From a virus (lineage: Duplodnaviria; Heunggongvirae; Uroviricota; Caudoviricetes), in the IMG/VR virus record IMGVR_UViG_3300038300_000093: a DNA stretch of 64,000 nucleotides. One strand, written 5' to 3'. Under the pieces are notes generated by a model, which saw only the letters and a list, made by a program, of their open reading frames with translations, was not told the origin of the DNA and made no database searches. Shown piece by piece: positions 9,525 through 64,000 of the stretch. How positions within the stretch are numbered: position 1 is the stretch's first letter; every line of letters starts with the position of its first letter. Made by a program: the position numbers and the translations under genes.

Positions 9525-9619
9525 TTTTGTGTCCTTTTCTTTTTTTAGTAAGCCTGCTTAGTGCTTCTTACTAATTTTACTATAAGGGCTTAAACTGTTT
9601 ATTCAAGCCCTGTTTTCAA
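9525..9619 (-). promoter_or_regulatory. family-A intergenic module (loop variant AGGGCTTAAACTGTTTATTCAAGCCCT)
   Basis: -35 TTGAAT inside the stem-loop, 16-nt spacer, -10 TATAGT. Confidence 0.5.
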
Positions 9620-9802
9620 TTATTTTAAAAGTTCTTTAATTAATACTTTTGAAAGACTAAAAGCCATTTCAATATCAGTCACGGATATTGAATCTAACAT
9701 ATCAACTTTGTCGTGACATTCGTTCAAATATTCCAAAGCTTGTCCCTTCTGACCATTGATCATTGCGTCTTCAATTAGTACAAATCTTTCTTCTGTATTC
9801 AT
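9620..9802 (-). CDS. hypothetical protein (60 aa)
   Basis: ORF-track ORF; module upstream. Confidence 0.5.
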   Translation of the reverse strand: MNTEERFVLIEDAMINGQKGQALEYLNECHDKVDMLDSISVTDIEMAFSLSKVLIKELLK

Positions 9803-13280: not shown

Positions 13281-14225
13281 TTATTTATCAATTGTTATTA
13301 TTACTGTCGCGACATTAGTCCCAGACTCTTTAAAAGCTCCTGCTTCCACTTCTTCTACTTCTCCGCCAACTTCTTCAAGCCAGTCTCTAAACTCCTTCTG
13401 TAGCTTCTGCTGTCCTGTCTGCCAAGACTTACTGGCAATACTTACCAAACGTCCCGAAACATTTAAAAATTCATACATGTGTTTAATGTGCTTTATATCT
13501 TGATTCTTTGTGAATGGAGGATTTGCTAAAATTCTATCATATACAGGCTGTGAAGGAATTTCTAAGAAATCACCACTAGTAACTTGATAGCCTTTGTCCT
13601 GTAGTATCTTTACATTATCCTCAAACAGTTCAAAGCATTGTACATTTTCTTTCTTAAGTCCTTCTACTAAGTCGCCATGTCCTGCTGAAGGCTCTAAAAT
13701 ATAATGATGATCCTCAACGCAAGCTTTTTCTTGTACTGCTTTTACTTGTGGCTTACATGTTGCAAAGAATTGAAATTTCTTTTTATCATTTACACTTTCG
13801 CCAGATAAAAGACGATCTAAAAGATCTTCAAGCTTGTCAGATTCAAAACCATTCTTCTTATAAGAAAAGCCCGCTGTCAGTAAAGTTTTCTTTACTGCTG
13901 TGTAATTTGTGAATTGTTCACTTTGTGGCAATTCTAATCTATTGCCGCTTACTGTCATTTTAGATATGTTGATTAAAACAACATCATCACCAGAGTATCT
14001 TGGTTTTTTAGCTCCATAGTTCCTAACAGCATAATCGTTATGTCTTTCAACTATTACTTTTAATTCTTCTTTATTTTCTCTAAAGTGTTTACAGTCTTCA
14101 GGCATGTCAGATTTTAAGAAGTCTTGTGCTTCAATAATGTTAATTGTTCTATTGTGAAAAACTCTGTCATTCTCTAACATTAATTCAAGATTGACCTGTT
14201 TGTTTGTTAATTCTTCGTAGCTCAT
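13281..14225 (-). CDS. N6-adenine (amino-) DNA methyltransferase, with no restriction partner in the window
   Basis: SAM-binding motif I ILEPSAGHGDL and catalytic motif IV ILANPPFTKNQD (NPPF). No adjacent restriction endonuclease gene. Confidence 0.7.
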   Translation of the reverse strand: MSYEELTNKQVNLELMLENDRVFHNRTINIIEAQDFLKSDMPEDCKHFRENKEELKVIVERHNDYAVRNYGAKKPRYSGDDVVLINISKMTVSGNRLELPQSEQFTNYTAVKKTLLTAGFSYKKNGFESDKLEDLLDRLLSGESVNDKKKFQFFATCKPQVKAVQEKACVEDHHYILEPSAGHGDLVEGLKKENVQCFELFEDNVKILQDKGYQVTSGDFLEIPSQPVYDRILANPPFTKNQDIKHIKHMYEFLNVSGRLVSIASKSWQTGQQKLQKEFRDWLEEVGGEVEEVEAGAFKESGTNVATVIITIDK

Positions 14226-27149: not shown

Positions 27150-27569
27150 TTACATTTCCTCTAAAGCTTCTTCAACTTCTTTCCAATCTTTACTTCCGTC
27201 GAAGCCTGCCTTATCATCAATCAATACATTGAAATAAAACTTGCCATCAAAATTACATAACTCATCTGAAGGACAATCTGGATTGCAATTGAAATGATCA
27301 AATACAATACCAAGATCTTTCAATCTCTCAATATGCTTTTCAACATAATCTTCATAAGATGATGTCCACAATGTTAAAGTACTGTCAGATCTTTCTGTAA
27401 GCTTCTTTAAGACTCTTATGGCATCTGGATAAAATTCATTCTTACCATCATCCTTGGTATAACTACCCGGCATTATAGTGTCATGAAAATCAATACACCA
27501 AAACATCTTATCCCAACCACGTTCTTTCATCTTACTAAATTCTTTCTTTATCGTTTCCTTTAAAGACAT
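27150..27569 (-). CDS. hypothetical protein, possibly a HAD-superfamily-like phosphatase (139 aa)
   Basis: WCIDFHDTI near the N-terminus and NVLIDDKAGFDG near the C-terminus resemble HAD motifs I and IV. The fit to the DxDxT spacing is imperfect. Confidence 0.45.
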   Translation of the reverse strand: MSLKETIKKEFSKMKERGWDKMFWCIDFHDTIMPGSYTKDDGKNEFYPDAIRVLKKLTERSDSTLTLWTSSYEDYVEKHIERLKDLGIVFDHFNCNPDCPSDELCNFDGKFYFNVLIDDKAGFDGSKDWKEVEEALEEM

Positions 27570-30100: not shown

Positions 30101-30355
30101 TCAACATCTGTACTTTGTATCATTACCAGAAGGAGGAATCTTATTAAACTTAGGAAGTTCAGGCTTACCAGTATGAGCATCGTTCAACTCTTCAAGTGTA
30201 GCAGTTGTCTGCTTCTCTCGTAAAGGATCTATCTCATGTACAAATGTTAAATTTAAATGATTCTTAACTATCTTTACTTGCTCGTCTGTCATTTCATCAG
30301 ATCCAGAGATCTCAAAAAAACCCTGTAACCAAAAACAAAAATCTATACTATTCAT
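30101..30355 (-). CDS. hypothetical protein (84 aa)
   Basis: ORF-track ORF. Confidence 0.5.
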   Translation of the reverse strand: MNSIDFCFWLQGFFEISGSDEMTDEQVKIVKNHLNLTFVHEIDPLREKQTTATLEELNDAHTGKPELPKFNKIPPSGNDTKYRC

Positions 30356-30356
30356 A

Positions 30357-30509
30357 TTACTTCCTCACCATTCTAGTCTTATTACAATCTGGACAAACAA
30401 ACATATAAGGAATTGGCTCCTTCTTATCTGTAAAGAATCCTATCCTATACATAAGTGTACAAGGAGGCGCTGGTGGACATTTATGTTTCTTCTTTTTCTT
30501 CTTTCCCAA
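30357..30509 (-). CDS. small basic zinc-ribbon protein (about 50 aa, TTG start), copy 1 of a duplicated gene
   Basis: Hand-translated: (L/M)GKKKKKKHKCPPAPPCTLMYRIGFFTDKKEPIPYMFVCPDCNKTRMVRK. Canonical SD AAGGAG 9 nt upstream of TTG. A second copy about 90% identical at the nucleotide level lies at 52960-53112. Confidence 0.45.
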   Translation of the reverse strand: MGKKKKKKHKCPPAPPCTLMYRIGFFTDKKEPIPYMFVCPDCNKTRMVRK

Positions 30510-30685
30510 CTCTCTTCTCCTTCATTTAAAAATTCATTAAACATTACAAGAATGATTGGCATTCCGGGTCTCCGCAGATAACTATAATATTTATTAAATC
30601 TTTCACATCCATTTATACCGTTAAATTATCTTAGATATATAATATAAAACAAGATTATAATTTTGCAAGACGATTCTTTAATTTT

Positions 30686-31260
30686 TATCTCTCGTGCTCA
30701 AATGGTCTACTTTTCCCATATAGAGAAAGACAAAATTCTTTTACAGTTCCCTTGTCTGCCAGATTCATCTGACAGACGTCTTTAATATACACGCCCAAAC
30801 CAACTTGTCAAGCCCCAAATCATTCACAACATGTAAAAACTTACACACTAATATATCTAATCAATCACTCTGGGTAATCTTTTACTCATTAACTTCTCCC
30901 CGACTGGGATCTTTCGGTCTTTCCCTATATGCCAGAATAACACTTTTCGTGCTTGAGGAGTCTACTTTTCCCATATAGAAGAAGACAACAATCCCCCAAC
31001 AGGGAAACAATCATTATTTACTTTCGTGTCTTATCTTATCCTATATAACAATAATAACACTTTTTGTGCTTGAGAGGTCTTCTTTTCCCATATAGAGAAA
31101 GACAAAATTTACTTTCGTGTCTTAACTTCTGGTAGATCCATCTGACAGAATGACCTGAACGGGTTCTTTTTATATCTCTCAGGGCTTTCTGACAAAAAAA
31201 GAAATTTTAAACTTTCGTGCTCAAATGGTCTACTTTTACCATATAGAAGAAGACAAAAAT
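30686..31260. repeat. four dispersed copies of a ~47-bp element CTTTCGTGCT(CAAATG/TGAGGA)GTCTACTTTTCCCATATAGARAAGACAAAA
   Basis: Copies at about 30686-30740, 30943-30998, 31062-31112 and 31205-31258. Each carries an imperfect inverted repeat around TATATGGG. Interspersed are TCTGACAG boxes (30770, 31140, 31188, 31375, 31425) and family-B motifs. Confidence 0.6.
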
Positions 31261-31516
31261 AACTTAATGAATATTATTCTGTACATTCCTCTGGGTTGAT
31301 GGCTAATATTCTGTACAATAGTTGCACAAACATCTATTCATTGGGTTATATCTGGGTTAAAAGATGCACAAGCATCTGACAAATCTACTTTTTTTTGAAA
31401 ATCCTTTTTTCAAATCTGACAGAATTTTTAATTTCTGGGACATTTGTCAGTCTTTTTTGTGTTTTTTTGCTATTTTTTGCTATTTATCACTGTTATTTGA
31501 CCCGTATTTCTAATTC

Positions 31517-31603
31517 AAAAACATTTCACGCCCTCTACACTAATATCTATTTGAGGTTAAATTTAATTAACATCAAACATTTCACGCCCTCTACACTAAT
31601 ATA
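31517..31603. repeat. 28-bp direct repeat AACATTTCACGCCCTCTACACTAATAT, two copies 55 bp apart
   Basis: Exact duplication at 31517-31547 and 31572-31603, in non-coding DNA. Confidence 0.6.
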
Positions 31604-31897
31604 GTAATATGTTATATATTAATTATTAAATCTATATCCCAGAGAGCCTTTTGGGGCATCTGTGCTGTATTTAGACAATTAAAACGTTATGGAGGTCATA
31701 TTATGCCTTACTCGCTCTCTAAGGAGCTTAATTGGCATATTAATTTCAACTAGTTTTAAGTAAAGCGTTTTAAAGATTGCAATATGATTACTATGTTACT
31801 ACTATACCTACATATATACTCTTGGTAGTCTATATAGGTATATGTATTATATGTTCTACTGTATATATCTATTCTAGTATATGCTTTTTGTATTTAT

Positions 31898-31974
31898 CTA
31901 TTTTTTTGTACTTGTAGTGTTTACTCATATTTTTTCTTGTATCTTATAATTTGCACTTGTAGTCTTTACTTATC
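31898..31974. repeat. AT-rich direct repeats GYACTTGTAGTSTTTACTYATNTTTTTTCTTG, two copies
   Basis: 31898-31929 and 31942-31974, inside a >200-bp AT-rich tract (31780-31990) with no ORF. Confidence 0.5.
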
Positions 31975-31992
31975 TTTTTTCTTGGATTGTAT

Positions 31993-32232
31993 TTATTGTT
32001 TCCATTTTCCTAGGAAGTAATTCAGATTCATTCCTGAGCCATAGCCAATTTTCTCATCTATTAATTTTTCAAAATTTAAGCTGAAATTCTCGTCATAAAT
32101 AAATAGGCAGCCTTTAAATTCTTCCTTGTATTTTCTAGGAACTATGCTACTACTATACAGGTTAAATTCTATTGGGAATATATTGTCGAATACTTTCCTG
32201 TGATCTTCTTCTTTTATATTCTTATATTTCAT
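31993..32232 (-). CDS. KGCLFVYDD-family paralog (79 aa)
   Basis: Contains FKGCLFIYDENF; first member of the tandem array. Confidence 0.6.
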   Translation of the reverse strand: MKYKNIKEEDHRKVFDNIFPIEFNLYSSSIVPRKYKEEFKGCLFIYDENFSLNFEKLIDEKIGYGSGMNLNYFLGKWKQ

Positions 32233-35737: not shown

Positions 35738-36592
35738 TCATATTAAATACATTAATATTTCTTTTGCCTCTTCGCTGAGGTTTTCTATATTAACACATTT
35801 TATAGCTTCTTTGTTTTGTCTGACTGCTTCTATCTGTACTTTCTCGGTAGGATTTATTATATTTCCAATTGAAGAAAAATTTTGTCTTACTGCAATTAAC
35901 TGCGCTTCTTCACATGGATTCTTTATATATTGTATTGCAGAACATATTTCCTCCACAGCTTTAATTTGTACTTCTTTGCTGGCGTTGTTTATTCTCTTTA
36001 TTACAAGGCCATCTTGACCAACCGCTTCTAATTGAATTGCTTTACTGGGATTCTTTATATACATTATTGAATCAGCAGTTTCTTTAATAGCAATCAAACA
36101 AGCTTTCACGCATGGATTCTTTATATATCTCAGTGACTCACAGTTTTCACTGACTGCTTCCATTTGAACTTCTTCATCTGGGTTGTTTATACTCTTTATA
36201 GCAAGGCCATCTTCTTCCACAGCCTCTAGTTGAATATACTTATTGGGATTATCAATATACATTATTGAATCAGGACATTGTTTAACTGCTTCCAACTGTA
36301 CTTCTTCACTAGGATTCTTTATATATCTAATTGATAATCCTGACTTTTTAACAGCAGCCAATTGAAGTTCTTCGCTTGGATTATCAATGAATTTTATAAC
36401 ATCTCCATTTATCCTAATTGACTTCAAACATTTATCTTTATCATAAATGTCAAATCCTATTGATTTTACCTTTTGTTCCTTCAGGTATTCTGTTAAATCT
36501 TTCATTTTACTTCTACATTGTTTATTTGGTTGACCAAGACTTATTACATCCAATACATATCCAACCTGATGTACGAGATTTAGTGTCGTCAT
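35738..36592 (-). CDS. tandem-repeat protein (284 aa) with about eleven ~23-aa repeats I.NPSEEVQLEAVKQ.G.AI.YI
   Basis: The periodic repeat is visible in the translation and resembles the DUF4116 repeat class (EEVQLAAVKQNG.AL.YA). This assignment is from memory, not from a search. Confidence 0.6.
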   Translation of the reverse strand: MTTLNLVHQVGYVLDVISLGQPNKQCRSKMKDLTEYLKEQKVKSIGFDIYDKDKCLKSIRINGDVIKFIDNPSEELQLAAVKKSGLSIRYIKNPSEEVQLEAVKQCPDSIMYIDNPNKYIQLEAVEEDGLAIKSINNPDEEVQMEAVSENCESLRYIKNPCVKACLIAIKETADSIMYIKNPSKAIQLEAVGQDGLVIKRINNASKEVQIKAVEEICSAIQYIKNPCEEAQLIAVRQNFSSIGNIINPTEKVQIEAVRQNKEAIKCVNIENLSEEAKEILMYLI

Positions 36593-45670: not shown

Positions 45671-46435
45671 TTAATTCCAAACAAACGATTCTTTATCTTT
45701 AGAATCTATAATAGAAGATGTAATGTAATTAATCACAGTACGCTCTACTTCCAAATTGGGGTTGCTTCTTGCTTGATGCTTTTCTGGAAGAGATTCAATC
45801 TCCTCAGTTGTAAACTTGGATATAGACTTTGATCTTTTGATACAAATTCCATTCCTATAGCATTCCGGCATCTTAAGCCAATCATTATTATCTTCTTCAA
45901 GCATCTTCTTCATTTCCCACGTCTTCTTCTCTTGAAGCTGTTTGTGGCTAAATACAGACTGAGCTAAACAACTTACGCTATTTCTTCTACAATCCTCTGC
46001 TCTCCACTCCAAACACTCAATAGCTGTTTGCTTGTCTGGTACTTCAAAGATACGACAGTCAAACAATGCCATTACATCAGAATTTGATAAGTTGTTGAAA
46101 TGATAAGTAGCCAAGCTTGCCAATACTGAGCAAAGCTTCATGAATTTTCCACCAAAGAATAATTCTTGATTATCACTCTTCTTTGTCAAAACTAAACTTA
46201 TTTCATCAGATTGAGTATAACCGATATCAGCATCACAATATAATACCAATTCCTCCGTGACTTTTTTCATTTGATTGAAAAATTTCTCATCAAATGGCTT
46301 CTCGCAATTGATGGATTTAGTATATTTACTAAAGTTCTTGCCATCCAATCTAATTATTATCGGCTTGTCACCTGAGGGCTTATAGTTAAACTCTCTTTCA
46401 TATTCTTTAAGCTTGTCGCCAAGTGGATCTTTCAT
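45671..46435 (-). CDS. Thg1-like protein (tRNA-His guanylyltransferase family, 3'-5' nucleotidyltransferase)
   Basis: PIIIRLDGKNFSKYTK ... ADIGYTQSDEISLVLTKKSDNQELFFGGKFMKLCSVLASLATYHFN matches the Thg1 core (VVVRLDGRNFHRF ... AYGQSDEYSFVF ... R.SK..T..AS.F...Y). Start chosen at MKDPLGD (ATGA coupling to an upstream micro-ORF); the track's longer ORF would start at 46465. Confidence 0.75.
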   Translation of the reverse strand: MKDPLGDKLKEYEREFNYKPSGDKPIIIRLDGKNFSKYTKSINCEKPFDEKFFNQMKKVTEELVLYCDADIGYTQSDEISLVLTKKSDNQELFFGGKFMKLCSVLASLATYHFNNLSNSDVMALFDCRIFEVPDKQTAIECLEWRAEDCRRNSVSCLAQSVFSHKQLQEKKTWEMKKMLEEDNNDWLKMPECYRNGICIKRSKSISKFTTEEIESLPEKHQARSNPNLEVERTVINYITSSIIDSKDKESFVWN

Positions 46436-46611
46436 TCTTTTATCCTTTTTAGTTCTCTTAAGCATAACTTACAAGTGACTTTATCTGTATTGTAAGTTAT
46501 GTCATCCCTAACATAGCCGCACTCTGTGCTATGATTATATTCGTAATCGGTTTGACCTGAATTTCTAAAGTCTTTACCTCTCAAAAACATGTGTATTTTC
46601 GGATTTCTCAT
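46432..46611 (-). CDS. zinc-ribbon micro-protein (59 aa), not in the ORF track
   Basis: Hand-translated: MRNPKIHMFLRGKDFRNSGQTDYEYNHSTECGYVRDDITYNTDKVTCKLCLRELKRIKE. ATGA overlap with the Thg1-like start. Confidence 0.35.
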   Translation of the reverse strand: MRNPKIHMFLRGKDFRNSGQTDYEYNHSTECGYVRDDITYNTDKVTCKLCLRELKRIKE

Positions 46612-59944: not shown

Positions 59945-60220
59945 TTAATCCTCATATTCTTCTTTCCGCTCTATTTTTAAATAGCCTCTTTTATCTTCTG
60001 TTGTTAAATCAAATGCATCTTGATAATTAATTAGAATGGAAGAATACCAAGATACATGATTTGTAGGCATGAAGCTAATACTCTGATCGAAGATTAATAT
60101 GTGTTTGTTTATTTTTAAAACATTATTACAACCACTAACCCACTTATATTCTAAGTCTAACAATAAATTCTGTAAAATTATTGACTCTGATTTAGTTACA
60201 ACTGATGCCCATCTCTTCAT
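59945..60220 (-). CDS. hypothetical protein (91 aa)
   Basis: ORF-track ORF. Confidence 0.45.
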   Translation of the reverse strand: MKRWASVVTKSESIILQNLLLDLEYKWVSGCNNVLKINKHILIFDQSISFMPTNHVSWYSSILINYQDAFDLTTEDKRGYLKIERKEEYED

Positions 60221-60510
60221 TTTCTTCCATAGAAGGTGTAGTTTAATAGTTCCGAATCTTCTTCTCTGGAATCTTTATTTAAAGATACAGACTTGCCATA
60301 AGCAGTTAATTTATGTTTAACACAAATGCCAGAACCATATTCATCAAACTTATCTAAATCCTCTATGGAAACAAATCCTGCTGAAATGACATCTTCTCTG
60401 CCGCAAATTCTATTTGCTATCGTAAAATGTTGGAAATTTGATCCAAATATAACTGGAGTTTCATTGCCATATTTATCTTTAACTACTATGTATTTAACTT
60501 CTCTGCTCAT
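60217..60510 (-). CDS. hypothetical protein (97 aa)
   Basis: ORF-track ORF. Confidence 0.5.
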   Translation of the reverse strand: MSREVKYIVVKDKYGNETPVIFGSNFQHFTIANRICGREDVISAGFVSIEDLDKFDEYGSGICVKHKLTAYGKSVSLNKDSREEDSELLNYTFYGRK

Positions 60511-60520
60511 ATCGTTTTCC

Positions 60521-60775
60521 TTAATCTACAAAATATTTACTTTCGACAAAATACTCTTTGTTATTCTCATCAGTTATCTTTAAAACAATTGTTCCATCGT
60601 CTTCTATGTATGTGTCACTATACAGCTGACTTCCCCTCTTGATAACCTCTTGAATAACTATCGAATGTATAAAATCATCCAATTCTTCCTTAGGAATATT
60701 TTTATTCCCAACTTCAACAAAGTTTTTACTGCGAGGCTTCTTTTCCTTAAAGAAAGACCTGATGAACTTGAACAT
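60521..60775 (-). CDS. hypothetical protein (84 aa)
   Basis: ORF-track ORF. Confidence 0.5.
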   Translation of the reverse strand: MFKFIRSFFKEKKPRSKNFVEVGNKNIPKEELDDFIHSIVIQEVIKRGSQLYSDTYIEDDGTIVLKITDENNKEYFVESKYFVD

Positions 60776-60791
60776 TTATAAAATCCTTTTA

Positions 60792-61052
60792 TTAATCAAC
60801 CGTAATGTATTGTTCGTCAATGTAATAATTTATTATATTATCAACATTCCTAATTTTTATAAGAGATTTACTAAAAGTAAATATATTTCCTGTAAACTTC
60901 CCAGCTACTACTTGTCGCATCTTGATTGATGAATTAGTTTCTTTGATCGTTCCAGTGTAAAGATAAGTTCCACCAATACTGGAAACTACAAGCCTTACGG
61001 TTTTTTCCTTGATCTTCAAAAGTCTTCTCATTGTTTTTATAATCTTTTTCAT
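60792..61052 (-). CDS. hypothetical protein (86 aa)
   Basis: ORF-track ORF. Confidence 0.5.
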   Translation of the reverse strand: MKKIIKTMRRLLKIKEKTVRLVVSSIGGTYLYTGTIKETNSSIKMRQVVAGKFTGNIFTFSKSLIKIRNVDNIINYYIDEQYITVD

Positions 61053-61113
61053 CGCCTTTATCCTTTGTTTTAATTTAACTTAATATAAAAAAGGATACTT
61101 TCAAGTCGTTATA

Positions 61114-61491
61114 CTATAATAATTGTAACTTTTTAGTCAGTTTGTTGAGAGTTTCTATATCTTCCTCGGTATAAACTGGGCCTAATGCCATAACTGTTGG
61201 AGTTCCGGCTGTTACTTCCGTTCTTCCCCCATCAACTTGAACAGAACAAGGAATATCAACTTCTTTTGCCTTTGCAACTAACTTATATAGATTCTTTTCA
61301 CTCTTCACATAACAAGTAATACAAACATGGCCATCGTCAACATCGTCACCATAAGGCTTTAAATCAGGATTTCTCCTTAGAGCATGAATAACTTGTGCCG
61401 CTGTCTTACCGATTGACATATTTAAATCTTTTCTAACTACTAAAACTAACTTACTCTTTAATTCTCTCATCGATCTATTTCCTTGAATCAT
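61114..61491 (-). CDS. peptidyl-tRNA hydrolase, PTH2 family
   Basis: KLVLVVRKDLNMSIGKTAAQVIHA ... VQVDGGRTEVTAGTPTVMALGP matches PTH2 (KMVLVVRTDL.MGKGKIAAQCSHA ... DAGRTQIAPGS.TVLGIGP). Overlaps the upstream RNA ligase gene by 17 nt. Confidence 0.75.
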   Translation of the reverse strand: MIQGNRSMRELKSKLVLVVRKDLNMSIGKTAAQVIHALRRNPDLKPYGDDVDDGHVCITCYVKSEKNLYKLVAKAKEVDIPCSVQVDGGRTEVTAGTPTVMALGPVYTEEDIETLNKLTKKLQLL

Positions 61492-62458
61492 AATCCATAT
61501 TGATAATCTTAAATGAATCTTCTTCAGTATTTATAACCACTCCTTCAAAACTCTGTCCGTTTAGCTTTTTAGGTGTTAAATATCTGTCGATAAGTTCTTG
61601 ATTAAATTCTACACCCTTTTCAATCATTGGAACCGTTTTCATATTTAATGATTTGGCAACCTCAAAAATGTAATACTTTGACTCAGTACGCTCATATTTC
61701 ATCTCATCAAAGTTAAATACTGAATAAAGAGCTAGATCTATCTTGAGTTTGCTATGAGGATTGTTAGAACTATTCTGTAGTCCTTGACCATACACTTCAC
61801 CACGAATAGCCAAAGAAACATCATTCTCTATACAGAAAGATTTCAATACATTTTCAACGTCATACACTTTGTTATGCACAGTGTAGATGTTTTCCTTATC
61901 AACATCAAAATCAACAGAGCGGCCAGTAATGCCGAATCTAAAGCCATCTGGCTCATTTTCATCTCTAATGCAGTAAGCCGTCCAACTCGATCCATCAATC
62001 TTAAGTGTTACATCAACCTTTTTACCAAAGTACTTACTTATATCGATATTTTGAAACATGATCTCGTCAGTCTTAGGAAGATTTACTGGAAGGCCTCCAA
62101 CTCCGCCATAAACTTGAGATACCGGAGCTATATATTTTGTAATTCCAAGAGAACTTACATCATCACCGACATTAAAAGAATCATCCAATCCAACGTCTTC
62201 CAAACTAACAACAATTCCAAATGACCAAATTCCACGAAGCTTTTGAGCCTTAACACGCTTTTTATTAAACTTCTTATAGAATTCAGCCCAAGGGGATTCT
62301 GGGAGGACAGTGTCTGGATAAATAAATAATACTTTATCACCGACTTTAAATGCTCCGCGAGATACGATTGCAGGAAATCCCTTGACTTTAACAATGTCTA
62401 AGCGATCTGCATTTGAATGAGTAGTTACTTCTTTGATTAATTCTATTTCAGCTAACAT
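61475..62458 (-). CDS. ATP-dependent RNA ligase-like nucleotidyltransferase fused to an N-terminal tRNA-binding (Myf/EMAP-type) OB-fold domain
   Basis: N-terminus HSNADRLDIVKVKGFPAIVSRGAFKVGDKVLFIYPDTVLPE resembles the tRNA-binding OB domain (HPnADkL.v..vd.G...iVcGA.n...G..v..A.pGavLp). Ligase motifs follow: I TLKIDGSS (KxDG), IRGEVYGQG, IV FEGVVI, V SFKIIN. Confidence 0.65.
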   Translation of the reverse strand: MLAEIELIKEVTTHSNADRLDIVKVKGFPAIVSRGAFKVGDKVLFIYPDTVLPESPWAEFYKKFNKKRVKAQKLRGIWSFGIVVSLEDVGLDDSFNVGDDVSSLGITKYIAPVSQVYGGVGGLPVNLPKTDEIMFQNIDISKYFGKKVDVTLKIDGSSWTAYCIRDENEPDGFRFGITGRSVDFDVDKENIYTVHNKVYDVENVLKSFCIENDVSLAIRGEVYGQGLQNSSNNPHSKLKIDLALYSVFNFDEMKYERTESKYYIFEVAKSLNMKTVPMIEKGVEFNQELIDRYLTPKKLNGQSFEGVVINTEEDSFKIINMDYDSRK

Positions 62459-62507
62459 TATAAATTCCTTTTTGTTTTACTTAAACTTAAAGCAAAAAAT
62501 GAATTTG

Positions 62508-62906
62508 TCAAGATGGAAAAGAATTAATTTTTGATGCTTCTTTGAGGACTGTTAGAATTTTTCTTTGCTTTTCTTTTTCTTCAATATCTTCACTGACCAA
62601 CAGATCCAGCTCTTTATATATTTCTTCTGGCAAGTTTTCAAAGTATCCTGCAATTTTATTTTTTATATCGAACTTTTCTTTCTTTTGTTCTTCTTTATAT
62701 TCGATCCACTCCTCAAGAGTTTCTTTTGTATCCAAGATGCATTGATCTAATCTAAACCACATACTCCCTTCACAACGAACCCAAACTTTCTCTTGGCATG
62801 TTATTTTTACTTCTGTAATTTTCCAAGGAGCTGGATTAGCACAAGTGATCGGATGATCTTTTGGAGCGCAATATTGGCCCTCTAGGTATTTGACATTTAC
62901 ATTCAT
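62508..62906 (-). CDS. hypothetical protein (132 aa)
   Basis: ORF-track ORF. Confidence 0.5.
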   Translation of the reverse strand: MNVNVKYLEGQYCAPKDHPITCANPAPWKITEVKITCQEKVWVRCEGSMWFRLDQCILDTKETLEEWIEYKEEQKKEKFDIKNKIAGYFENLPEEIYKELDLLVSEDIEEKEKQRKILTVLKEASKINSFPS

Positions 62907-63014
62907 GTTTATTCTCGTTAATAATTAAAAAACTTCTTCTTCTCGTTAATTTCTTTAACATACTTACAAAAACGATAAAGTCAATCTCTGCAGAAGAAGA
63001 AGTTTAATTATTAA

Positions 63015-63221
63015 TTACATGAATGGATTTCCGTCAGCGTCGTGTGTTATTGTTACTATTTCATACATATTATGCATGATAACAAACACGGACAATAAGC
63101 CAAAGCTTAATATGGTTACTAACAATTGAATAATCCCTTCTCTGTTGTATCCTGCTACGAAATTATGTACTCCAAAAATTCCAACAAGCAGAGCTAACAT
63201 TATATATAAGAATCGTGACAT
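63015..63221 (-). CDS. TM2-domain membrane protein (68 aa)
   Basis: LLVGIFGVHNFVAGYNREGIIQLLVTI matches the TM2 signature (G.fG.hrFYlG....G..QLl) with two transmembrane helices. Confidence 0.55.
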   Translation of the reverse strand: MSRFLYIMLALLVGIFGVHNFVAGYNREGIIQLLVTILSFGLLSVFVIMHNMYEIVTITHDADGNPFM

Positions 63222-63275
63222 TTTTGATTATCCTTTTTTATATAACAAACTACTATAGAAGGATTTATCGAATTA

Positions 63276-63473
63276 TTATATATGCATTTTATCCCAAATC
63301 AACAAGCACCCTGGATATTCATTCCCCATTTCCTCTTCCGTTTCCCATCTGGTAGTATAATACAATTCCCCATAGCACTTTGGACAATCTATATGGCCAT
63401 TACTAAATCTGCGCATTTCTCTCTCACTTCCGAAATAACTACACTCCATGCATCTAATAATTAAATCTGACAT
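63276..63473 (-). CDS. zinc-ribbon micro-protein ending ..PGCLLIWDKMHI (65 aa)
   Basis: Contains CMEC...CPKC. The tail weakly echoes the KGCLFVYDD motif. Confidence 0.45.
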   Translation of the reverse strand: MSDLIIRCMECSYFGSEREMRRFSNGHIDCPKCYGELYYTTRWETEEEMGNEYPGCLLIWDKMHI

Positions 63474-63479
63474 TAGTAG

Positions 63480-63731
63480 CTATTTATACCTTTTGTCTTG
63501 TATATCTTTTATTTTTCTACAAACACTAGATACTTCCCAATCTCCCCTTGACCCAACTTCCAAAACTAATTTTTCCAGTTTCTCTATCTGCTCATCTCTT
63601 TTATCCAACATGTAAGACATAGATTCTTCATAGTTTCCACATTCTTTTAAATGCTTTATCGAACCACACATGAATACATTACATCCAGCACAACATTCAA
63701 ATTCCAACTCAACACTATGTTCTCTCATCAT
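63480..63731 (-). CDS. Cys-containing hypothetical protein (83 aa)
   Basis: ORF-track ORF. Confidence 0.45.
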   Translation of the reverse strand: MMREHSVELEFECCAGCNVFMCGSIKHLKECGNYEESMSYMLDKRDEQIEKLEKLVLEVGSRGDWEVSSVCRKIKDIQDKRYK

Positions 63732-64000
63732 TTTCCATAACCCAATAAAAACTTAACCTTGTTTGATCTTTTTTGCTTTTTAACTTTGTATTCTAATTTA
63801 GTAGCTTGAGATCTGTTTTCTAAAGGAATCGATAGTGCAATCATTTTAACTGGCCTTCTTGTTGAAGTATACTTAGCGCCACCACATAGAAGGCCGTTGT
63901 GTCGCCTTATTCTCTTTTCCACATCATTCGACAGTCCAGTGTAATAAGTCCCGTCAATGCACTCTACAATGTAAACGTAGTAAGATTTACCAGTGGGCAT
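63728..64000 (-). CDS. GIY-YIG nuclease-domain protein (COG2827/YhbQ-like)
   Basis: YYVYIVECIDGTYYTGLSNDVEKRIRRHNGLLCGGAKYTSTRRPVKM matches GIY..YIG ... R...HN.G.GAKYT..R.P. Its ATG sits at the last three bases of the window. Confidence 0.65.
   Translation of the reverse strand: MPTGKSYYVYIVECIDGTYYTGLSNDVEKRIRRHNGLLCGGAKYTSTRRPVKMIALSIPLENRSQATKLEYKVKKQKRSNKVKFLLGYGK

Follow-up and report, generated by a model that had tools for sequence, protein, structure and literature searches.

RNA ligases of the Rnl5 family, including NgrRnl and DraRnl, share a signature layout in which an N-terminal OB module precedes a C-terminal nucleotidyltransferase domain that carries no C-terminal appendage, and the family already counts phage proteins among its members (PMC4408790, PMC7261155). 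The likeness of the N-terminal module to the B2 OB fold of the PheRS beta subunit was published in 2007 (PMC1807946). In NgrRnl, the role shown for the OB domain is in lysine adenylylation, where it holds the ATP gamma-phosphate; the gamma-phosphate contacts are partly redundant, and the R149A mutant has a severe adenylylation defect (PMC7261155). The characterised substrates of the family are nicked duplexes with an RNA 3′-OH strand, in which 3′-OH/5′-PO4 nicks are sealed in an ATP/Mn-dependent reaction (PMC4408790, PMC1807946). Among phages, Iyer et al. (2021) proposed that the RNA ligase, Thg1 and PTH2 proteins of jumbo phages rescue cleaved tRNAs and jammed ribosomes, and read this toolkit as a counter-defence against host attack on tRNAs (PMC7824862).

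Here we analyse a 64-kb stretch of phage DNA (the window) in which an Rnl5 ligase gene is directly followed by a gene for a Pth2-type peptidyl-tRNA hydrolase. The window belongs to a large uncultured phage, comes from a source contig of 98 kb and holds about 157 small genes on one strand. An earlier note, made from the sequence alone, had proposed that the two genes form a module for rescuing tRNAs. Our result is a correct annotation and not a discovery, the functional idea being already in the literature.

Results

The ligase is an ordinary Rnl5 enzyme

The ligase gene begins at an ATG with an AAGGA Shine-Dalgarno sequence 7 nt upstream. Both of its Pfam domains, PF21189 (residues 2–84) and PF09414 (residues 148–315), exceed their gathering cutoffs (44.3 and 40.9, cutoff 27). 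The protein also matches PHROG 968 (4e-44), the NgrRnl sequence in the PDB (8e-18) and NCBIfam TIGR02306 (1.4e-29), where its 103.1 bits do not reach the equivalog cutoff of 151.15. An AF2 model (pLDDT 94.4) was aligned by Foldseek to NgrRnl (6vte/5cot) with a TMq of 0.83 and an E-value of 2.7e-23 over ~350 alignment columns. Identity as an Rnl1, Rnl2 or DNA ligase was rejected, as Foldseek matches to these enzymes are limited to the nucleotidyltransferase core (TMq ≤0.47).

Motif I (K153-x-D155-G156), motif III (E221), motif IV (E305) and motif V (K317) keep the same residues throughout 44 homologues, which bears out the KxDG motif and motif V lysine read earlier from the sequence. The motif residues align with NgrRnl K170, D172 and E227, and the family alignment pairs E305 and K317 with NgrRnl E312 and K326 by position. 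Only 10 residues follow K317, and the order of the domains, OB module first and nucleotidyltransferase second, is that of Rnl5. The architecture does differ from T4 Pnk/Rnl1, as had been claimed, and the Rnl1 C-terminal domain is absent; the layout was, however, already known, and the ligase "fusion" is not new but defines the Rnl5 family.

Comparison with the L002 orthologue gives a dN/dS of 0.062/0.73, or 0.085 across the whole gene, and the ligase is under purifying selection. It is an ordinary member of a known family, within a large, mainly metagenomic subfamily whose members are 40–49% identical to it. A nucleotide search of the region against 50,697 phage records returned no match, and the locus therefore has no annotated close relative among them.

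Table 1. Coordinates of the ligase, Pth2 and Thg1-like features in the window.
Feature	Position	Strand	Remarks
Rnl5-family ATP-dependent RNA ligase gene	61475..62458	(-)	327 aa; TAG stop 61475-61477
N-terminal OB domain, ligase residues 1-112	62123..62458	(-)	Rnl5 signature domain; invariant D49, conserved K108
Nucleotidyltransferase domain, ligase residues 113-327	61478..62122	(-)	Motifs I, III, IV, V; no C-terminal appendage
AAGGA Shine-Dalgarno-like sequence	61480..61484	(-)	9 nt upstream of Pth2 Met8 ATG 61470; within last ligase codons
Pth2-type peptidyl-tRNA hydrolase gene	61114..61470	(-)	Probable 118-aa form from Met8
Thg1-like protein (tRNA 3′-5′ polymerase / 5′-end repair)	45671..46465	(-)	PF04446 2.6e-28

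The OB domain resembles tRNA_bind, and the ligase lacks two arginines of NgrRnl

In a direct fold comparison, the OB fold of the ligase resembles tRNA_bind domains more than it resembles generic OB folds. Every sub-threshold PDB match that follows NgrRnl is a tRNA_bind protein, and there is a weak homology signal to pheT_bact (6.2e-6). The tRNA_bind profile itself, PF01588, does not reach its cutoff of 27: it scores 14.6 bits (E 0.036) and covers residues 69–91 only. The domain is a distant homologue of the tRNA_bind / PheRS-beta B2 / EMAP OB fold, and the resemblance described in the earlier note stands. Since the OB domain of NgrRnl engages ATP and the characterised Rnl5 substrates are nicked duplexes, a "tRNA-targeted ligase" is conjecture rather than a finding.

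Within this domain, D49 and K108 correspond to NgrRnl D53 and K121. NgrRnl Arg4 has no counterpart, because the phage protein begins one residue after that position. In the nucleotidyltransferase domain, Met134 aligns without gaps to NgrRnl Arg149 (TDEIMFQN versus TDQERVQN), in a column that holds Arg in 39 of the 44 homologues, Met in 2, Leu in 2 and Asn in 1. Given these two changes, ATP use by the phage ligase may differ from that of NgrRnl or be weaker. With Met occurring naturally where NgrRnl needs an arginine, the protein is a ready variant, of modest value, for studying ATP positioning.

The downstream gene encodes an archaeal-type Pth2

The downstream product matches PF01981 over profile positions 2–115 of 115 (7e-22; 78.3 bits, cutoff 23) and the PDB entries 1wn2 (2.6e-12) and 2zv3 (7e-12). 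It is a divergent member of its family, since it scores under both NCBIfam equivalog cutoffs (75.3 against 126; 65.5 against 82). In archaeal Pth2, a Lys, an Asp and a Thr are catalytic by mutagenesis. The corresponding K29, D87 and T91 (numbered on the 125-aa open reading frame) are identical across 14 homologues and align with the GK, D-G and TE positions of 1wn2 and 2zv3. Relative to the L002 orthologue, the dN/dS is 0.196/1.16, and the gene is under purifying selection. It is a genuine, ordinary archaeal-type Pth2, as the PTH2 label had implied. The family assignments made before our analysis thus hold throughout, with an OB domain that is tRNA_bind-like, a ligase that is not a DNA ligase and a Pth2 with its motifs in place.

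The two genes are tightly juxtaposed

The two genes had been described as overlapping by 17 nt, which was taken to imply co-translation. This overlap depends on the longest Pth2 reading frame (125 aa from ATG 61491), whose start lacks a Shine-Dalgarno sequence. Three relatives encode a 118-aa Pth2 that starts at the equivalent of Met8; in L002 this start codon has a comparable AGGA in front of it, and in L168 the upstream ATG is not in frame with the Pth2 gene. The overlap is probably a start-codon artefact. More likely, 4 nt separate the two genes in the window and 7 nt in L002, while in L168 they share 4 nt (ATGA).

The argument for co-translation thereby loses its doubtful start codon but keeps a conserved tight juxtaposition. 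In every relative the ligase stop codon is within 8 nt of the Pth2 start codon, and the two genes may therefore be translationally coupled. They are consecutive, and we infer that they are probably transcribed together. A promoter and terminator scan of positions 60000–64000 found no more of either than shuffled sequence contains, and thus gives no operon boundaries.

A Thg1-like gene and no healing domain in the window

A third tRNA-maintenance gene of the phage lies 15 kb from the ligase–Pth2 pair, on the same strand and not adjacent to it. Its Thg1-like product scores 99 bits against PF04446 (cutoff 29.2), matches PHROG 4717 (1.7e-66) and the Thg1-like protein 4kgk (1.2e-29), and has relatives in 164 phage records. 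The window also carries a thymidylate synthase and nucleases. Searches with ARAGORN and Rfam detected neither tRNA genes nor other RNA genes in the window, and an Rfam search in E-value mode of the ORF-poor stretch 30300–32100 was likewise empty.

None of the 157 open reading frames of the window carries a kinase, HAD, metallophosphatase, 2H or RtcB Pfam domain, in agreement with the earlier statement that no polynucleotide kinase/phosphatase is evident nearby. With no healing domain in the 64-kb window, the ligase would be limited to breaks that already present a 3′-OH and a 5′-phosphate, unless healing enzymes are supplied by the host or by the genome beyond the window. The sole HAD-like open reading frame (27150–27569) had been put forward as a possible phosphatase. 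It does have a HAD-like fold, but a role as an RNA 3′-phosphatase is unsupported: its second catalytic Asp is replaced by His (DxHxT), it lies 34 kb from the ligase, and its relatives are annotated as sugar-phosphate enzymes.

The ligase–Pth2 pairing is confined to a narrow clade

Adjacency of ligase and Pth2 is kept in three close relatives only. Around Rnl5 genes more widely, Pth2 was found within 6 kb at 0 of 66 viral loci, and neither Pth2 nor Thg1 was found near any of 12 cellular loci (cyanobacteria, Chitinophagales, Trueperaceae and others). The cellular loci were retrieved from species-representative genomes with an alignment as query; the ligase alone as query returned nothing. Starting from Pth2, an Rnl5 gene was present within 6 kb at 3 of 80 viral loci, which exceeds a rough chance expectation, and there may be some functional link between Rnl5 and Pth2. 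On these three independent viral contigs, the two genes are 0.7–2.3 kb apart; one contig also has an adjacent small HAD-like hydrolase and one has AAA_33 and AAA_28 P-loop proteins. In L033, Rnl5 and Pth2 are separated by genes for a dNMP kinase and an NT5C nucleotidase, enzymes of nucleotide metabolism and not of RNA healing. In Sinorhizobium phiM12-group phages, Rnl5 and Pth2 are ~22 kb apart, and phage Pth2 genes often lie within tRNA gene arrays.

When the genes flanking Rnl5 at the 66 viral loci were clustered, no consistent partner emerged, the top families occurring at ≤13 of 66. The neighbours are heterogeneous and often concern DNA or nucleotide metabolism (primase/helicase, ThyX, PhoH-like proteins, metallophosphoesterases). 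Metallophosphoesterases, a small P-loop protein and a second RNA ligase each recur at 6–8 of the 66 loci, and the window has no homologues of these recurrent neighbours. The reading of ligase and Pth2 as a rescue module is weak: adjacency is retained in three clade members, does not extend to the wider sets of viral and cellular Rnl5 loci, and has a looser counterpart at only 3 of the 80 viral Pth2 loci. The clade pairing and the three looser co-localisations give a testable hint, of modest value, to the in vivo substrate of Rnl5.

Discussion

We lean towards a reading in which each enzyme carries out the chemistry of its own family independently, as part of a phage auxiliary set for translation. 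By homology, the ligase would transfer AMP from ATP onto Lys153, with the OB domain helping to place the ATP gamma-phosphate; the AMP would then be moved to a 5′-phosphate RNA end, which would be sealed to a 3′-OH RNA end, preferably one held in a duplex. Pth2 would cleave the ester bond of peptidyl-tRNA or N-blocked aminoacyl-tRNA to yield reusable tRNA. Together with the Thg1-like enzyme, the two would keep translation working during infection or under a tRNA-directed host defence. We infer both the activities and the in vivo substrates of ligase and Pth2.

A ligase unrelated to tRNA, sealing nicks in RNA:DNA hybrids or RNA-containing duplexes during replication, recombination or repair, with Pth2 simply the next gene of a mosaic auxiliary region, is rather unlikely in our judgement. 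It would agree with the preference of characterised Rnl5 enzymes for nicked duplexes with an RNA 3′-OH strand and with the radiation sensitivity of Deinococcus that has lost DraRnl (PMC5397189, PMC4408790), as well as with the mixed neighbours of viral Rnl5 genes and with the thymidylate synthase and nucleases of the window. On the other side, tRNA stems are themselves duplexes that could carry nicks, and the phage's Pth2 and Thg1-like genes point to an investment in tRNA maintenance. The same genes would suit a coupled arrangement, in which the OB domain targets tRNA, Pth2 strips the peptide from a cleaved or stalled tRNA and the ligase reseals it. Here the OB domain specifically of tRNA_bind/PheRS-B2 type, the tight juxtaposition in three clade members, the three further contigs with nearby genes, the Thg1-like repair gene and the published hypothesis that PTH2 frees cleaved peptidyl-tRNAs in ribosome rescue (PMC7824862) all argue in favour. 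We nevertheless hold such coupling to be distinctly unlikely: every Rnl5 enzyme has the OB domain, including those that seal generic nicked duplexes, and its shown role concerns the ATP gamma-phosphate (PMC7261155); Pth2 is missing near the 66 viral and 12 cellular Rnl5 loci, the window has no healing enzymes, and the genes that intervene in L033 serve nucleotide metabolism.

A specific two-step form of this pathway, improbable as it stands, would have Pth2 de-peptidylate a ribosome-bound tRNA nicked by a host nuclease, after which Rnl5 would dock through its PheRS-B2-like OB domain and reseal the base-paired nick. If true, it would give the first physiological substrate for a family whose functions were called "uncharted" by its discoverers, and a repair that needs no kinase or phosphatase, its breaks already having 3′-OH and 5′-phosphate ends. 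Very improbable, finally, is a ligase compromised in step 1 that would act solely on pre-adenylylated ends, draw on another cofactor or work as an RNA-binding protein. Met134 at the essential gamma-phosphate-binding Arg149 site, Arg in most homologues, and the missing equivalent of Arg4 would fit such a loss, as would the severe block to adenylylation in R149A and the sparing of step 3 when the N-domain of NgrRnl is deleted (PMC7261155). Against it, every other catalytic residue is invariant, the whole-gene dN/dS is low, Met or Leu recurs at this site in four otherwise intact homologues, and the gamma-phosphate contacts of NgrRnl are partly redundant (PMC7261155). Independent family chemistry in a translation-directed auxiliary set remains our preferred account.

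Comparison with known systems

Relative to NgrRnl, the phage ligase is ~26–30% identical, has Met134 in place of the essential Arg149 and begins without an Arg4 equivalent. Like T4 Pnkp/Rnl1, the locus has a phage ATP-dependent RNA ligase of the same nucleotidyltransferase superfamily, with a plausible role in countering host RNA damage. Unlike T4 Rnl1, the ligase has no C-terminal tRNA-specificity domain, and Foldseek aligns the two over the nucleotidyltransferase core only (TMq 0.38–0.41); Rnl5 enzymes favour duplex nicks, not single-stranded loops, and the 64-kb window has no polynucleotide kinase-phosphatase to pair with the ligase.

The Pth2 matches PF01981 over its full length, as do the archaeal and eukaryotic enzymes (Pyrococcus horikoshii 1WN2, Methanocaldococcus 2ZV3, human Bit1 1Q7S); it has the same size as archaeal Pth2 and keeps the GK...D.G.TE...GP residues. 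It is ~35–39% identical to annotated phage Pth2 proteins and, like the PTH2 genes of the Sinorhizobium phiM12 group, Agrobacterium Atu_ph07, Xanthomonas Xoo-sp13 and Mycobacterium phage Myrna, lies in an auxiliary gene region. It differs from distant public-assembly homologues (P0009–P0014) by lacking their ~27-residue insertion, and its position directly downstream of an Rnl5 gene is unusual.

In contrast to the toolkit of Iyer et al. (2021), the 64-kb window showed neither phage tRNA genes nor a CCA-adding enzyme, RlaP, PNK or 2H enzymes, and its ligase is an Rnl5, whereas the phage ligases surveyed there are mostly Rnl1 or Rnl2 (PMC7824862). As in that toolkit, an RNA ligase, a Thg1-type polymerase and a PTH2 occur together in one phage genome (PMC7824862).

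Ligase identity and N-terminal domain

The ligase is a member of the Rnl5 family, as follows from profile and PDB matches, superposition of its predicted structure and invariant motifs. Its ORF and that of Pth2 are consecutive on the minus strand, exactly where the earlier note placed them, and all peptides quoted there are present. In Pfam, the ligase carries an RNA_ligase domain (PF09414, 2.7e-11) preceded by a 'PHA02142 OB-fold' (PF21189, 2.8e-10); it matches PHROG 968 'RNA ligase' at 4e-44, and its best NCBIfam model is RNA_lig_DRB0094 (TIGR02306, 1.4e-29, under the equivalog cutoff). By sequence, solved relatives are limited to the entries for the RNA ligase of Naegleria gruberi (NgrRnl; 8e-18), and an AlphaFold model from 44 homologues (pLDDT 94.4) superposes on full-length NgrRnl (TMq 0.83, E 2.7e-23). 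Residues K153, D155 and G156 (motif I), E221 (III), E305 (IV), K317 (V) and D49 are invariant in the 44-homologue alignment. Matches to Rnl1, Rnl2, Rnl3 and DNA ligase are confined to the nucleotidyltransferase core (TMq <= 0.47), and assignment to Rnl1, Rnl2 or DNA ligase was rejected. The fusion, considered architecturally different in the earlier note, is the known architecture of Rnl5 enzymes, defined by an N-terminal OB module and a C-terminal nucleotidyltransferase with no C-terminal appendage; phage homologues are already listed in the Rnl5 papers (PMC4408790, PMC7261155).

Table. Features of the window.
Feature	Coordinates	Strand	Remarks
Rnl5-family ligase ORF	61475-62458	-	327 aa
Pth2 ORF	61114-61491	-	125 aa
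Thg1-like protein (tRNA 3'-5' polymerase)	45671-46465	-	PF04446, 2.6e-28; PDB 4kgk (Thg1-like protein), 1.2e-29
HAD-like ORF	27150-27569	-	PHROG 1238, 8e-16; PDB 2obb, 6e-4
GIY-YIG domain protein	63728-64000	-	at window edge
DUF4116 repeat protein	35738-36592	-	3e-17
ORF with weak methyltransferase small-domain match	13281-14225	-	PF05175, 1.2e-4
Stretch lacking minus-strand ORFs >= 45 aa	30509-31993		1.5 kb, inside otherwise dense gene array
~66-nt element, examples	1720-1785, 2496-2561, 9555-9620		intergenic spacers

The N-terminal domain had been proposed to be a tRNA-binding OB fold. The Pfam tRNA_bind match in the ligase lies below threshold (E 0.036), and the NCBIfam PheT model matches residues 8-95 at 6.2e-6. 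A profile of residues 1-112, built from 30 sequences and searched against the PDB, matched NgrRnl best (1.4e-19); all eight further matches up to E = 10 were of the tRNA_bind type (PheRS beta, MetRS C-terminal domain, 3bu2 and YgjH), so the likeness to these proteins is both real and specific. The resemblance is not new: the N-module of DraRnl, the Deinococcus enzyme, was described as a putative homologue of the PheRS beta B2 OB fold by Raymond and Shuman (2007) (PMC1807946). The proposed fold therefore stands, while targeting of the ligase to tRNA is an inference, because the demonstrated role of the NgrRnl N-domain is to contact the ATP gamma-phosphate and a metal via Arg4, Asp53 and Lys121 (PMC7261155), and the nicks that Rnl5 enzymes seal are in duplexes whose 3'-OH strand is RNA (PMC7261155, PMC4408790). 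Deletion of the NgrRnl N-domain impairs adenylylation and spares step 3 (PMC7261155).

The gamma-phosphate is also bound by NgrRnl Arg149, and changing this residue to Ala severely impairs adenylylation (PMC7261155). The partner of Arg149 in a gapless alignment is Met134 of the ligase (TDEIMFQN vs TDQERVQN). This position is Arg in 39 of the 44 homologues, Leu in two, Asn in one and Met in two, namely the window ligase and its closest relative; NgrRnl Arg4 has no counterpart in the window ligase. Despite both departures, purifying selection on the gene is strong (dN 0.062, dS 0.73 in comparison with the relative on contig L002), and the Arg-to-Met change at an otherwise essential ATP-binding residue offers a small lead.

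Pth2 and its junction with the ligase gene

PF01981 spans the Pth2 protein end to end (Pfam, 7e-22), among archaeal Pth2 structures 1wn2 and 2zv3 are hit at ~1e-12, and K29, D87 and T91 are invariant across 14 homologues. For the Pth2 gene, dN/dS against L002 is 0.196/1.16. Both gene calls of the earlier note are correct.

The earlier note took a 17-nt overlap of the two genes to imply co-translation. Such an overlap requires translation to start at ATG 61491, which has no Shine-Dalgarno sequence and arises from the Tyr-Asp codons conserved at the C-terminal end of the ligase. ATG 61470 (Met8) has AAGGA upstream at 9-nt spacing, and in three relatives Pth2 is 118 aa long, starting at the Met8 equivalent. 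On L002 the Pth2 gene begins 7 nt past the ligase stop; on contigs L168-L170 its start and the ligase stop overlap by 4 nt (ATGA), and the ATG further upstream is in a different frame. The 17-nt overlap is probably an artefact, and the window junction is likely a 4-nt spacer. The tight juxtaposition is conserved, unlike the 17-nt overlap, and the genes may be translationally coupled.

Source phage and genome organization

PHROG matches and thymidylate synthase, Lar, GIY-YIG, HNH and SLT domains fit a large uncultured phage. About 157 small ORFs, all on one strand, fill the window, which matched no deposited phage in a nucleotide search and yielded no tRNA gene or Rfam family anywhere in its 64 kb; the stretch lacking minus-strand ORFs had no Rfam match at E up to 1. 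A YpsA/DprA-like protein is encoded beyond the window on the upstream side, and in the Sinorhizobium phage phiM12 a DprA-like protein lies ~0.4 kb from the Rnl5 gene, which hints at distant synteny with the phiM12 group.

At least 34 copies of a ~66-nt element occupy intergenic spacers in window 1-22000, one ahead of almost every small minus-strand ORF; the ligase gene has none in front. On the coding strand the element includes TTGAAC or TTGCAA, ~16 nt, then TATAGT, resembling a sigma-70 promoter. Many copies overlap a GGGCTT-loop-AAGCCC hairpin, followed by a T run on the opposite strand. These elements are probably repeated early promoters and perhaps double as antisense terminators.

Pairing of Rnl5 and Pth2 and comparison with known repair systems

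A tRNA-rescue module of ligase and Pth2 had been proposed. Their pairing is retained in three clade members (ligase identity 86-100%). Contigs that carry the pair include one of 98 kb from a JGI metagenome and a short one from Logan. Among the best 80 of 264 IMG/VR Pth2 relatives' loci, surveyed with 6-kb flanks, three hold an Rnl5 gene, at 0.7-2.3 kb. Their surroundings vary: one contig has AAA_28 and AAA_33 P-loop proteins, the second a small HAD-like hydrolase, peptide deformylase and RNase T-like exonuclease, and the third dNMP kinase and NT5C nucleotidase. No Pth2 or Thg1-like gene was found within 6 kb of viral Rnl5 (0/66 loci), whose neighbours are heterogeneous, or near cellular Rnl5 (0/12 loci), and in the phiM12 group Rnl5 and Pth2 genes are ~22 kb apart. 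We read the adjacency as a lineage-specific arrangement in a mosaic auxiliary region, any general tendency of the two genes to sit close being weak at most; the clade-specific pairing is a second small lead.

Many Pth2 genes of phages are embedded in tightly packed tRNA gene arrays (IMG/VR contigs L012, L013, L027, L032, L039, L047, L054, L061, L063 and L065), where as many as 15 tRNAs occur within 6 kb. A tmRNA gene is also part of the arrays on L039 and L047, and CUA-anticodon tRNAs on several Pth2 contigs (L013, L032 and L060) could be amber suppressors.

The earlier note saw no polynucleotide kinase or phosphatase nearby, in agreement with Pfam, which detected no polynucleotide kinase, phosphatase, 2H, RtcB or CCA-adding domain in any of the 157 window ORFs. 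The HAD-like ORF, suggested as a phosphatase source, escapes Pfam, lies 34 kb from the pair and has DFHDT as motif I, not DxDxT, with His for the second catalytic Asp. The Thg1-like gene, 15 kb from the pair, is the third tRNA-maintenance gene of this phage, and relatives of its product occur in 164 phage records. The survey of Iyer et al. describes RNA ligases, Thg1 and PTH2 of large phages as a toolkit with which tRNAs are repaired and ribosomes rescued (PMC7824862); the functional idea is therefore already published, and the gene context described here supports it weakly.
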